Source: a virus
Lineage: Duplodnaviria > Heunggongvirae > Uroviricota > Caudoviricetes
Length of the DNA stretch: 4,161 bases
Virus record (IMG/VR): IMGVR_UViG_3300013837_000016
Reading direction: 5' to 3' (one strand)
Each line of letters opens with the position of its first letter. Position 1 is the stretch's first letter. Below the pieces are notes generated by a model. That model had not been told where the DNA came from, did no database searches, and saw nothing but the letters and a program-made list of their open reading frames with translations. Both the position numbers and the translations under genes were made by a program. Below, in pieces: positions 3 to 4,161 of the stretch.

Positions 3-968
3 CCCCGTGACGAGGTTAAACCTGTACGGTTAGGGGAAATCATTACTGACTACACTGACACGCTTGACAGGCGTCTGAGGAACGGAGAAGAGTCAGATAC
101 CCTGAAGACCGGAATCGAAGAACTTGATGCCATCACCGGAGGGATGAACGCGGAAGACCTGGTGATAATCGCTGCTCGTCCTGGTATGGGGAAAACCGAA
201 CTGGCGCTGAAGATTGCCGAAGGCGTTGCAAGTCGCGTTATTCCTGGTTCTTACGTCCGGCGCGGAGTGTTGATTTTCTCGATGGAAATGAGCGCATTGC
301 AGATTGCAGAGCGAAGTATTGCCAACGCCGGGAGGATGTCGGTTAGCGTGCTGCGAAATCCTGCATCGATGGATGACGAGGGCTGGGCACGTGTTGCTAA
401 CGGCATGAGTCAGCTTGCAGATTTGGATGTATGGGTAGTCGATGCCTCGCGGTTATCGGTCGAAGAAATACGCTCAATCGCAGAACGGCACAAACAGGAA
501 AATCCAAACCTGTCACTCATCATGGCGGATTATCTTGGCCTGATTGAGAAGCCGAAAGCAGACCGCAACGACCTCGCAATTGCTCACATCTCAGGAAGCC
601 TTAAGGCGATGGCGAAAGACCTGAAAACGCCTGTTATCTCCCTGAGTCAGCTTTCGCGCGATGTTGAGAAGCGACCAAACAAACGCCCGACAAACGCAGA
701 TTTGCGTGATTCAGGAAGCATTGAACAGGACGCAGACTCAATCATCATGCTCTATCGGGAAGCAGTATATGACGAGAACAGTAGCGCCGCACCATTTGCT
801 GAAATCATTGTGACGAAAAACCGTTTTGGCTCGCTTGGTACGGTTTACCAGCGGTTCTGTAACGGACACTTTGTTGCATGTGACCAGGATGAAGCCAGAC
901 AGATTTGCACAGCATCAAATGCACCCGCTGCACGTGGCAGGCGATATGCACAAGGGGCTGACGTATGA
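3..968 (+). CDS. DnaB-family replicative DNA helicase (P22 gene 12-like), 5'-truncated at window edge
   Basis: Open frame runs from position 3 with no upstream stop to TGA at 966-968. The translation contains ...[37 protein letters not shown]..., which matches the DnaB C-terminal RecA-like domain: the TGG loop followed by a Walker A motif (AARPGMGKT). Downstream DxxG/SQLSRD-type motifs are typical of DnaB helicases. It is not lambda P-like. Confidence 0.88.
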
Positions 969-993
969 CCATCTACATCACTGAGCTTGTAAC

Positions 994-1025
994 AGGCCTG
1001 CTGGTAATCGCAGGCCTTTTTATTT
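994..1025 (+). terminator. Rho-independent terminator, tR2-like, immediately after the helicase gene
   Basis: Perfect 8-bp inverted repeat AGGCCTGC (994-1001) / GCAGGCCT (1010-1017) with an 8-nt loop, followed directly by TTTTATTT (1018-1025). Its position between the replication genes and the nin region matches tR2 of lambdoid phages. Confidence 0.7.
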
Positions 1026-1040
1026 GGGGGAGAGTAAATC

Positions 1041-1247
1041 GTGGCTGAGTTAATTTTCTCTGCATTGAGGATTCTCGGTGCTATGTGGATGGTGTCGACG
1101 TTCATTGTGGTTGTCGGAAGTTTTGTCCGGTTGGTAGGCGAAGGTAAAGACCTGGTGGGTGTGCTTTTCGGTAGCATTTTCCTGTGGGTGATTATCGGTG
1201 TTATGCCTGTCGCTGTAGCAAAAATGGCGTGGCGTTTTGTTAGTTGA
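1041..1247 (+). CDS. small hydrophobic protein (68 aa, predicted two transmembrane helices), unknown function
   Basis: GTG start at 1041 preceded by a strong Shine-Dalgarno GGGGGAGAG (1026-1034); stop TGA at 1245-1247. The translation has two hydrophobic stretches (MWMVSTFIVVVGSFV and VLFGSIFLWVIIGVMPVAVA) separated by the charged loop GEGKD. It occupies the slot between tR2 and ninB. Confidence 0.5.
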   Translation: MAELIFSALRILGAMWMVSTFIVVVGSFVRLVGEGKDLVGVLFGSIFLWVIIGVMPVAVAKMAWRFVS

Positions 1248-1254
1248 GGTAACG

Positions 1255-1701
1255 ATGAAGCAAATATACATGCTTCGCAACGAAGCAATCAGAAACAATG
1301 TCATAGACGCAATACTCTCACTCCCCATCGACGACAAGTCACCTCACGAAGTCCACGTTAAAGAAGCCAAGCGGAGTAATCCTCAAAACCGCCTTATGTG
1401 GGCGTTATTGCAGGACGTATCGCGTCAGGTGCTTTGGCATGGAGAGAGACTTGCGCCGGAGGACTGGAAAGATCTGTTCACTGCCCTGTGGCTTAAGACC
1501 AAAAAAATGGAGCAAAGAAGTGCGCCTGGTATCGACGGTGGCGTTGTCATGCTTGGCGTGCGTACTAGCAAAATGCGAAAGGCCAACATGACTGAGCTTA
1601 TCGAAATCATGTTCTGGTTCGGCTCAGAGCGCAACGTGCGGTGGAGTGATGACTCCAGGCGAGAGTATGAATGGTCACAACGAAAAGGGAAGGCTGCATG
1701 A
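1255..1701 (+). CDS. ninB: NinB (Orf) recombination mediator protein
   Basis: ATG at 1255 with SD GAGG 6-9 nt upstream. The 148-aa product (MKQIYMLRNEAIRNN...NPQNRLMWALLQDVSRQVLWHGERL...[20 protein letters not shown]) matches lambda NinB/Orf in length and in conserved blocks (QNRxLWAxLxDVSRQVxWHG, KWSDE-like C-terminus). The six-frame ORF start at 1237 is an upstream in-frame codon lacking an SD. Confidence 0.9.
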   Translation: MKQIYMLRNEAIRNNVIDAILSLPIDDKSPHEVHVKEAKRSNPQNRLMWALLQDVSRQVLWHGERLAPEDWKDLFTALWLKTKKMEQRSAPGIDGGVVMLGVRTSKMRKANMTELIEIMFWFGSERNVRWSDDSRREYEWSQRKGKAA

Positions 1702-2225
1702 CTATCAAATCAAATACGCCATCACACGACAAGGACTGCTGGCAAACGCCGCTTTGGCTTTTTGATGCGCTGGATATTGAGTTTGGATTCTGGCTGGACT
1801 CGGCAGCGAGCGACAAAAATGCTCTGTGCGCTCACTGGCTAACTGAGGCCGACGACGCGCTAAATTCTGAGTGGATAAGCCACGGTGCAATCTGGAATAA
1901 CCCACCGTACAGCAATATCAGGCCGTGGGTGGAAAAAGCCGCTGAGCAGTGCATACAACAGCGACAGACGGTAGTTATGCTTGTGCCAGAGGATATGTCA
2001 GTCGGATGGTTCAGCAAGGCTCTGGAGAGTGTTGACGAAGTTCGCATCATCACTGATGGACGGATTAATTTTATCGAACCATCGACAGGGCTGGAGAAGA
2101 AGGGAAACAGCAAAGGCTCCATGCTGCTGATTTGGCGACCGTTCATCAGTCCTCGACGGATGTTTACTACCGTATCCAAAGCGGCATTGATGGCGATCGG
2201 GCAGGGCGTCAGGAGGGCGGCATGA
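1698..2225 (+). CDS. phage-type DNA N6-adenine methyltransferase (orphan; Dam-like phage family)
   Basis: ATG at 1698 overlaps the ninB stop (ATGA), with SD AAGGGAAGG upstream. The 175-aa product carries the catalytic motif IV NPPY (..[14 protein letters not shown]..) and an N-terminal CWQTPxxLF block typical of small phage N6-adenine methyltransferases. The six-frame ORF start at 1671 is an upstream in-frame codon. Confidence 0.75.
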
Positions 2226-2374
2226 GGCGACAGCGACGAAGTTTCACCGACATCATCTGCGAAAACTGCAAATACCTTCCAACGAAACGCTCCAGAAATA
2301 AACGCAAGCCAATCCCAAAAGAATCTGACGTAAAAACCTTCAATTACACGGCTCATCTGTGGGATATCCGGTGA
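2222..2374 (+). CDS. ninE: NinE protein
   Basis: ATG at 2222 overlaps the methyltransferase stop (ATGA), with SD AGGAGG 5 nt upstream. The 50-aa product [50 protein letters not shown] is near-identical to my recollection of lambdoid NinE. It was too short to appear as a separate ORF in the track, whose entry begins at 2132. Confidence 0.85.
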
Positions 2375-2760: not shown

Positions 2761-2929
2761 CCCATCCCAATCCCTTCAATACCAGAAAGAAAGCGTCGAG
2801 CGGGCTTTAACGTGCGCTAACTGCGGTCAGAAGCTGCATGTGCTGGAAGTTCACGTGTGCTCCGATTGCTGCGCAGAACTGATGAGCGATCCGAATAGCT
2901 CAATGTACGAGGAAGAAGACGATGGCTAA
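2753..2929 (+). CDS. ninF: NinF protein (58 aa, Cys-rich)
   Basis: Not in the ORF track (below the size cut-off). ATG at 2753 with SD AGGA 8 nt upstream; it overlaps the previous gene's stop by 8 nt. The translation [58 protein letters not shown] is near-identical to lambda NinF and contains CxxC...CxxCC. Stop TAA at 2927-2929. Confidence 0.85.
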
Positions 2930-3533
2930 ACCAGCGCGAAGACGATGTAAAAACGATGAATGCCGGGAATGGTTTCACCCTGCATTCGCTAATCAGTGGT
3001 GGTGCTCTCCAGAGTGTGGAACCAAAATAGCACTCGAACGACGAAGTAAAGAACGCGAAAAAGCGGAAAAAGCAGCAGAGAAGAAACGACGACGAGAGGA
3101 GCAGAAACAGAAAGATAAACTGAAGATTCGAAAACTCGCCTTAAAGCCCCGCAGTTACTGGATTAAACAAGCCCAACAAGCCGTAAACGCCTTCATCAGA
3201 GAAAGAGACCGCGACTTACCATGTATCTCGTGCGGAACGCTCACGTCTGCTCAGTGGGATGCTGGACATTACCGGACAACTGCTGCGGCACCTCAACTCC
3301 GATTTGATGAACGCAATATTCACAAGCAATGCGTGGTGTGCAACCAGCACAAAAGCGGAAATCTCGTTCCGTATCGCGTCGAACTGATTAGCCGCATCGG
3401 GCAGGAAGCAGTAGACGAAATCGAATCAAACCATAGCCGCCATCGCTGGACTGTCGAAGAGTGCAGGTCCATCAAGGCGGAGTATCAGCAGAAACTCAAA
3501 GACCTGAGAAATAGCAGAAGTGAGGCCGCATGA
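2922..3533 (+). CDS. ninG: NinG (Rap) recombination-associated structure-specific endonuclease
   Basis: ATG at 2922 overlaps the ninF 3' end by 8 nt, with SD GAGGAAGAAG upstream. The 203-aa product starts [33 protein letters not shown]..., has a lysine/glutamate-rich coiled segment and a C-terminal Cys/His cluster (CISCG...HYR...CVVCNQHK). Length and sequence match lambda NinG/Rap. Confidence 0.9.
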
Positions 3534-3736
3534 CGTTCTCAGTAAAAACCATTCCAGACATGCTTGTTGAAGCATACGGAAACCAGACAGAAGTAGCACG
3601 CAGACTGAAATGTAGTCGCGGTACGGTCAGAAAATACGTTGATGATAAAGACGGGAAAATGCACGCCATAGTCAACGACGTTCTCATGGTTCATCGCGGA
3701 TGGAGTGAAAGAGATGCGCTATTACGAAAAAATTGA
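3530..3736 (+). CDS. ninH: NinH, small Fis-like DNA-binding protein
   Basis: ATG at 3530 overlaps the ninG stop (ATGA). The 68-aa product [39 protein letters not shown]... is near-identical to lambda NinH and contains a helix-turn-helix-like segment ([18 protein letters not shown]). Confidence 0.9.
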
Positions 3737-4161
3737 TGGCAGCAAATACCGAAATATTTGGGTAGTTGGCGATCTGCACGGATGCTACACGAACCTGATG
3801 AAAAAACTGGAGACGATAGGATTCGACACCAAAAAAGACCTGCTTATCTCGGTTGGCGATTTGGTCGATCGCGGTACAGAGAACGTCGAATGTCTGGAAT
3901 TAATCACATTCCCCTGGTTCCGAGCTGTACGTGGAAACCATGAGCAAATGATGATTGATGGCTTATCAGAGCGTGGAAACGTCAATCACTGGCTGCTTAA
4001 TGGCGGTAGTTGGGTCTTTTATTTCGATTACGCCAAAGAAACCCTGGCAAAAACCTTTGCCCACAAAGCAGAAAAACTTCCATTAACACACAAAACGGGG
4101 GGCAAAAGAAAAAAACCGCCCCTTAACAACATCCCCGGGCCGCGGGGCCCCCCCCACCCCC
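3714..4161 (+). CDS. ninI: NinI-like Ser/Thr protein phosphatase (lambda PPase family), 3'-truncated; tail from about 4087 unreliable
   Basis: ATG at 3714 with SD GGAG 8 nt upstream, overlapping ninH by 23 nt. This frame is absent from the ORF track because no stop occurs before the window end. The translation [80 protein letters not shown]... carries the metallophosphoesterase signatures GDLHG, GDLVDRG and GNHE. After about 4087 the translation becomes implausible. Confidence 0.85.

Follow-up and report, generated by a model that had tools for sequence, protein, structure and literature searches.

Among the Dam-like methyltransferases encoded by phages, only those of T2 and T4 are homologs of the cellular Dam enzyme (PMC7139368). 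VT-2 is one of the phages with demonstrated Dam-like (G-m6A-TC) activity, according to statements in two papers that draw on the same source (PMC7139368 and PMC7556043, citing PMID 11720311), and M.EcoVT2Dam, an orphan methyltransferase encoded by prophage VT2-Sa, 'is known to target 5'-GATC-3'' in the wording of a passage in a third (PMC6602927, citing PMID 11720311). The source cited in these passages for the GATC specificity of M.EcoVT2Dam is Radlinska & Bujnicki 2001 (PMID 11720311). The Dam enzyme of Haemophilus phage HP1 is cited as Dam-like in a passage of PMC7556043, and expression of a 528-nt 'dam' CDS of phage Phi24B has been detected in lysogen cultures (PMC3342100).

The DNA considered here, which we call the window, is the whole stretch of 4,161 nt that was analysed. 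Its ORF list and Pfam scans identify it as a lambdoid-phage replication/nin segment with the genes on the + strand. An earlier note, made from the letters of this stretch, had singled out an ORF between ninB and ninE as an orphan N6-adenine methyltransferase that replaces ninC and ninD of lambda. We find that this gene (1698-2225, + strand) encodes a Dam-type N6-adenine DNA methyltransferase near-identical to the enzyme that we take to be M.EcoVT2Dam, and that it is an ordinary lambdoid-phage gene of a type already named, studied and routinely annotated.

Results

Family membership and conservation

Read from the sequence, the ORF opens with an ATG at 1698, closes with a TGA at 2223-2225 and encodes 175 residues with NPPY at residues 68-71, as the earlier note had it. 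In a Pfam scan, residues 4-169 align with positions 1-167 of the 169-position PF05869 (Dam) model at E=7.2e-65 (218.2 bits against a cut-off of 28.1), and a match of this strength over nearly the whole model shows that the ORF has not arisen by chance. Over positions 1-165 of 165 the protein also matches the NCBIfam equivalog TIGR01712, "phage N-6-adenine-methyltransferase", scoring 263.6 bits where the cut-off is 97.05. These two full-length matches place the protein in the phage Dam-type family that a profile search had been expected to return, and they support the core reading of the gene as an N6-adenine methyltransferase. The protein is also included in PHROG 111 ('DNA methyltransferase'), and its top PADLOC matches are models for 'orphan methyltransferase' (oMTase). 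In a literature search, PF05869 was mentioned only in passing.

The protein is 100% identical to RefSeq WP_000153306.1 of E. coli AVS0969, where the same ninB-methyltransferase-ninE arrangement is found, and copies of the gene at 95% nucleotide identity or more are carried by 1,566 of 5,426 complete E. coli genomes (about 29%). There are homologs in 1,903 phage records, and members down to about 30% identity are found in very different hosts, among them Bacillus, Lactococcus and Haloferax. The nearest relatives of the whole window are mEp213, HK544, HF4s and many Stx-converting phages, and in every one of them the gene bears a methyltransferase annotation; it is called 'dam' in Phi24B and phage N-6-adenine-methyltransferase in HK544, mEp213 and many Stx phages.

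Gene boundaries

A mechanical ORF search starts the gene at an in-frame ATG at 1671, giving 184 residues. We rejected this start on the basis of homolog lengths and the RefSeq annotation: full-length relatives are mostly about 175-180 residues long and align from the methionine at 1698, and the identical RefSeq protein of 175 residues is annotated from the ATG that corresponds to 1698. The start at 1698 is supported by these two observations together with a purine-rich, putatively Shine-Dalgarno-like stretch, AGGGAAGG (1686-1693, + strand), which sits 4 nt 5' of the ATG within the 3' end of ninB.

Both ATGA overlaps described in the earlier note are real: at 1698-1701 (+ strand) the ninB stop overlaps the methyltransferase start, and at 2222-2225 (+ strand) the methyltransferase stop overlaps the ninE start. 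The overlaps suggest that translation of the gene may be coupled to that of ninB and ninE, and ATGA junctions of this kind are the norm across nin regions (PMC8022706).

Two further ORFs lie on the opposite strand. A 174-aa ORF at 1832-2356 (-), which covers most of the methyltransferase gene and ninE in antisense, is taken as spurious, its best Pfam match (E=0.024) being at the level of chance; a 147-aa ORF at 845-1288 (-) has no family match and is likewise taken as spurious.

Conserved motifs and predicted fold

Conservation was assessed in a 13-sequence alignment made up of the VT2-Sakai and HP1 enzymes, members from a Drexlerviridae phage, from mEp013 and from Bacillus, Lactococcus and Vibrio phages, and enterobacterial prophage copies. 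A second alignment comprised 31 closer family members, and an AlphaFold2 model was built on these 31 sequences. Fourteen columns of the 13-sequence alignment are invariant, and the protein encoded in the window retains every one of them: W15, T17, P18, D34, N41, L55, N68, P69, P70, Y71, L95, E114, R122 and F125.

Three of these residues, W15, T17 and P18, form an N-terminal W-x-T-P motif (W15-Q16-T17-P18, codons at 1740-1751, + strand) that may serve in binding the cofactor or the base. The segment L33-D34-S35-A36-A37-S38 (codons at 1794-1811, + strand), in which D34 is invariant and A37 nearly so, is the putative S-adenosylmethionine-binding motif I, an assignment suggested by its likeness to Rossmann-fold methyltransferases. 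Catalytic motif IV, N68-P69-P70-Y71 (codons at 1899-1910, + strand), is invariant in both the 13- and the 31-sequence alignments.

The AlphaFold2 model (mean pLDDT 78.1, pTM 0.80) has alternating strands and helices and predicts a Rossmann-like SAM-methyltransferase fold. In it, L-D34-S-A-A lies at the end of a predicted strand (31-35) and NPPY directly follows another (64-67), and this predicted placement is that of motifs I and IV in SAM-dependent methyltransferases. When the model (m14ff5a35e727) was compared with the PDB by Foldseek, the best match was PCIF1/CAPAM (TMq 0.60, E=2.6e-4), and much weaker matches were obtained with other Rossmann-fold methyltransferases, including METTL4, Type I/ISP and BREX adenine methylases. 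Because motifs I and IV are in place and N6-adenine methyltransferase folds are the best matches, a degenerate fold, in which the SAM-binding motif and the catalytic residues would be lost, is rejected at the level of sequence and prediction.

Relation to other adenine methyltransferases

The enzyme belongs with the very small methyltransferases of the PF05869/TIGR01712 family (the HP1 Dam / VT2 Dam group), which have no separate target-recognition domain. HP1 Dam (orf13, NP_043482.1) is a compact member of the same family and shares W-x-T-P, D34, N41, NPPY, E114, R122 and F125, but its gene is located at the end of the HP1 early operon. Identity to HP1 Dam (35%) and to other PF05869 members such as the enzyme of the Drexlerviridae phage WaterSpirit is only 35-36%; the WaterSpirit enzyme has the conserved residues in common but carries an N-terminal extension of about 40 residues and is found in another genomic context.

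The alpha-class (MethyltransfD12) enzymes, E. coli Dam and T2/T4 Dam, carry out the same chemistry, presumably on the same GATC target, yet they are not family members. E. coli Dam has about 278 residues; the phage enzyme is much smaller and is without a separate DNA-recognition domain. No homology to cellular Dam or T4 Dam was found, PF05869 being the sole Pfam match at E<=0.01, and a sequence search of the PDB gave no match to any Dam structure at E<=10. The same search yielded no solved PF05869 relative, its top match, SdiA at E=0.17, being one expected by chance.

As judged from the predicted model, PCIF1/CAPAM and MT-A70-type enzymes are the closest solved folds (TMq 0.57-0.60, E about 3e-4), and it is thus in these eukaryotic proteins, not in bacterial Dam structures, that the solved folds nearest to the minimal phage enzyme are found. 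PCIF1/CAPAM and MT-A70-type enzymes have an NPP(Y/F/W)-type catalytic loop. They differ from the phage enzyme in being RNA enzymes with large extra domains and only 15-16% identity, PCIF1/CAPAM being a eukaryotic cap adenosine N6-methyltransferase (mRNA m6Am), and the predicted resemblance to PCIF1/CAPAM would be one of fold, not a family assignment.

The VT2-Sakai enzyme and target specificity

The closest named relative is far nearer than any of these. The protein is identical at 173 of 175 positions to VT2-Sakai orf32 (NP_050531.1), which we take to be M.EcoVT2Dam, and the only two differences, S9A and I60V, are both conservative and both outside the invariant columns of the 13-sequence alignment. 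The VT2-Sakai enzyme also has 175 residues, and its gene occupies the same site, flanked by ninB and ninE and overlapping both in the same way; the ninB-dam-ninE block as a whole is 94.7% identical in DNA. Around this block the two genomes are mosaic, the window having ninX after ninE and lacking the ant/roi insert before ninG.

The earlier note had held that target specificity cannot be read from the sequence. The near-identity to VT2-Sakai orf32, taken together with what the literature states of M.EcoVT2Dam in the passages quoted above, instead suggests GATC as the probable target. In this 175-residue enzyme, as in the family as a whole, there is no recognisable target-recognition domain by which GATC would be read.

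GATC is scarce in the window: there are 5 sites in 4,161 nt (at 1471, 2195, 2888, 3771 and 3867, the one at 2195 lying within the methyltransferase gene itself), where 16-19 would be expected from base or dinucleotide composition. The enzyme therefore has few local targets. Prophage regions have been reported to be GATC-poor (PMC6602927), and the scarcity in the window agrees with this.

The nin region of the window

Reading from the 5' side, the window contains the C-terminal part of a DnaB-type helicase (Pfam; ends at 968, + strand), a 68-aa strongly hydrophobic ORF (1041-1247, + strand) and then ninB/orf, the recombination mediator (1255-1701, + strand; PF05772, E=1e-48), for which the same start is annotated in the near-identical prophage. 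The methyltransferase gene is followed by ninE (2222-2374, + strand; PF05322, E=4.9e-37) and, on the same strand, by ninX (2401-2760), ninF (2753-2929), ninG (2922-3533) and ninH (3530-3736), all assigned from ORFs and Pfam, and by the 5' part of ninI (from 3714, + strand), assigned by translation only.

In lambda the order at the equivalent site is ninB-ninC-ninD-ninE. The methyltransferase shows no similarity (E=9.6) to lambda NinC, which is PAPS-reductase-like, and between ninB and ninE there is no DNA match to lambda. Lambda DNA matches the window at three places only, namely 965-1034, ninE (2229-2395) and ninF to ninI (2787-4086). The ninB gene is itself a divergent allele, with 43% amino acid identity to lambda Orf and no match at the DNA level, and for this reason the exchanged unit takes in not just the ninC-ninD slot but ninB too. 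The description of the gene as a replacement for ninC-ninD is thus right as to its position between ninB and ninE, but the exchanged unit is larger than that description allows, since it includes ninB.

Several other features of the segment were observed. A conserved 70-nt block (965-1034), 96-97% identical to lambda and to VT2-Sakai, stands between otherwise unrelated flanks. The block contains an intrinsic-terminator-like hairpin at 994-1017, AGGCCTGC...GCAGGCCT followed by TTTTATTT, with a T-run that extends to 1027; it is placed where lambda has tR2, immediately before the nin genes. The 68-aa ORF between this terminator and ninB is matched over its full length by PHROG 1165 (unknown function; E=3.6e-36) and has no Pfam or PADLOC match; it is hypothetical in E. 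coli AVS0969 and absent from lambda at that site. In some relatives ant, with a KilAC domain, and roi are located between ninF and ninG (L001:7249-7971, L003:7416-8947), whereas in the window ninF overlaps ninG directly at 2922; the ninF-ninG junction is another mosaic junction of the nin region.

An alignment of ninE with the alleles of AVS0969, VT2-Sakai and lambda revealed a TGA at 2372-2374 where all three have TGG (Trp51), giving a NinE of 50 residues as against 58-60; either a genuine nonsense polymorphism or an error in sequencing could account for the change. The last ~75 nt of the window (4087-4161) are homopolymer-rich and without a match in most relatives, the phage matches ending at 4086, and the NinI translation departs from lambda NinI after about residue 124. 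Together these have the look of poor sequence at the end of a read or contig, not of biology. An Rfam scan of the whole window gave no match.

Orphan status

The window ORFs that were scanned with Pfam and PADLOC (DnaB-type helicase, NinB, NinE, NinX, NinF, NinG, NinH and the 68-aa ORF of unknown function, the partial NinI being known by translation only) include no restriction nuclease partner, and there is no restriction-system nuclease in 12.5 kb of the near-identical E. coli AVS0969 prophage, from N to the lysis genes. The statement that the window holds no restriction endonuclease partner accordingly extends to a larger segment, and membership in a restriction-modification pair is rejected because the nuclease is absent.

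YbcN and the base-flipping annotation

The earlier note had also mentioned a protein reported to have DNA base-flipping activity, encoded just upstream of ninE in some E. coli prophages, without confirming that it is a homolog of the methyltransferase. The protein is real. In the K-12 prophage DLP12 the gene directly upstream of ninE is ybcN, annotated as 'DNA base-flipping protein', but it is unrelated to the methyltransferase, with which it shares only the position immediately upstream of ninE. A two-sequence BLASTP of YbcN against the methyltransferase gave no significant alignment (best E=0.014 over 38 residues). YbcN has a weak, sub-threshold match to the PF05772 NinB profile (21.7 bits against a cut-off of 23.8; L002:6467-6922), and the methyltransferase matches PF05869 only and not the NinB profile. 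YbcN has been described as an ssDNA- and SSB-binding member of the Orf family, for which a mismatch preference was not found, and as having no homology to methyltransferases (PMC4118853). On sequence grounds, then, YbcN is a distant NinB/Orf relative and the counterpart of ninB, not of the methyltransferase, and its 'DNA base-flipping' annotation may be misleading.

Discussion

Taken as a whole, these observations are very probably explained by an active orphan SAM-dependent GATC m6A methyltransferase that is made as a delayed-early product and tops up the methylation of phage DNA. For this exact allele we infer activity, expression timing and benefit to the phage. The enzyme would use S-adenosylmethionine to turn the adenine within 5'-GATC-3' into N6-methyladenine, and its mark would be the one that host Dam also places. 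By analogy with lambda, its gene would be transcribed from pR in the delayed-early phase, when N has allowed transcription past the tR2-like terminator (994-1027). GATC methylation would then be topped up on fast-replicating phage DNA that host Dam leaves under-methylated, so that progeny genomes would be fully methylated at any host Dam level and progeny DNA would be shielded from those GATC-cutting enzymes whose action is blocked by m6A. In P22 and lambda, virion DNA is indeed left under-methylated by host Dam (PMC8022706), and this provides a rationale for a copy carried by the phage.

It is improbable that the same GATC enzyme has instead a regulatory role, in which the prophage, expressing the gene at a low level, would add to the activity of host Dam, stabilising lysogeny or altering host or phage gene expression. 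The gene lies in the pR delayed-early operon, downstream of the tR2-like terminator, and this operon is silent in a repressed lambda-type prophage. Expression of the Phi24B copy was detected in lysogen cultures, and in the authors' view it may supplement host Dam (PMC3342100), but the signal from such cultures may stem from spontaneously induced cells. A passage of the same paper, citing Murphy et al. 2008, states that Dam is needed for stable 933W lysogeny, but the Dam that is essential for maintenance of that lysogeny is the host-encoded one (PMC3342100). Dam-dependent switches are known in related phages, an example being P22 gtrABC (PMC8022706), and would be in keeping with a regulatory role.

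Since E. coli already has Dam, the topping-up enzyme looks redundant in its usual host. A second activity beyond duplication of host Dam can be imagined, whether methylation of ssDNA or recombination intermediates, for which the linkage to NinB might speak, or relaxed methylation of near-GATC sites at high expression that blunts host defence; we consider such an activity quite unlikely.

An active enzyme with a specificity other or broader than GATC, which would lay down a distinct phage-specific methylation mark, is highly implausible. The family has no obvious target-recognition domain, small changes can shift specificity in some methyltransferase families, as in Type IIG enzymes (PMC6602927), and in the hosts of the ~30%-identity members (Bacillus, Lactococcus, Haloferax) GATC need not be the target. 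The present protein, however, departs from VT2-Sakai orf32 only at S9A and I60V, both away from invariant columns. In STEC 95NR1, moreover, whose genome has the gene in two near-identical copies, every adenine-methylated motif was assigned (PMC6602927), and the passage of PMC7556043 mentioned above calls HP1 Dam, a protein of only 35% identity, Dam-like as well. Scarcely credible is a degenerate, non-catalytic remnant carried in the nin mosaic: nin-region genes are non-essential, ninE in the same window has a premature stop and the 3' end of the window is of poor quality, but the methyltransferase reading frame is intact and of full length, all of the family-invariant residues are present (NPPY and D34 included), a RefSeq genome encodes the identical protein, and nucleotide identity of at least 95% is kept in 1,566 complete E. 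coli genomes.

The preferred reading thus remains that of an active GATC methyltransferase acting on phage DNA. The locus adds little that is new, being near-identical to a named, experimentally characterised enzyme, and what it teaches is already known. The benefit that a phage draws from the enzyme in a Dam-positive host and the recognition of GATC by a protein of this size are matters for the family as a whole, and the window offers no special handle on either. The practical value is one of annotation: the name phage Dam-type (M.EcoVT2Dam-like) GATC methyltransferase can be given to the gene, and it is the YbcN/Orf family, unrelated to the enzyme, that should bear the 'base-flipping' label. 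In methylome studies this common prophage gene counts as a second GATC methylase, one that by its motif is indistinguishable from host Dam.
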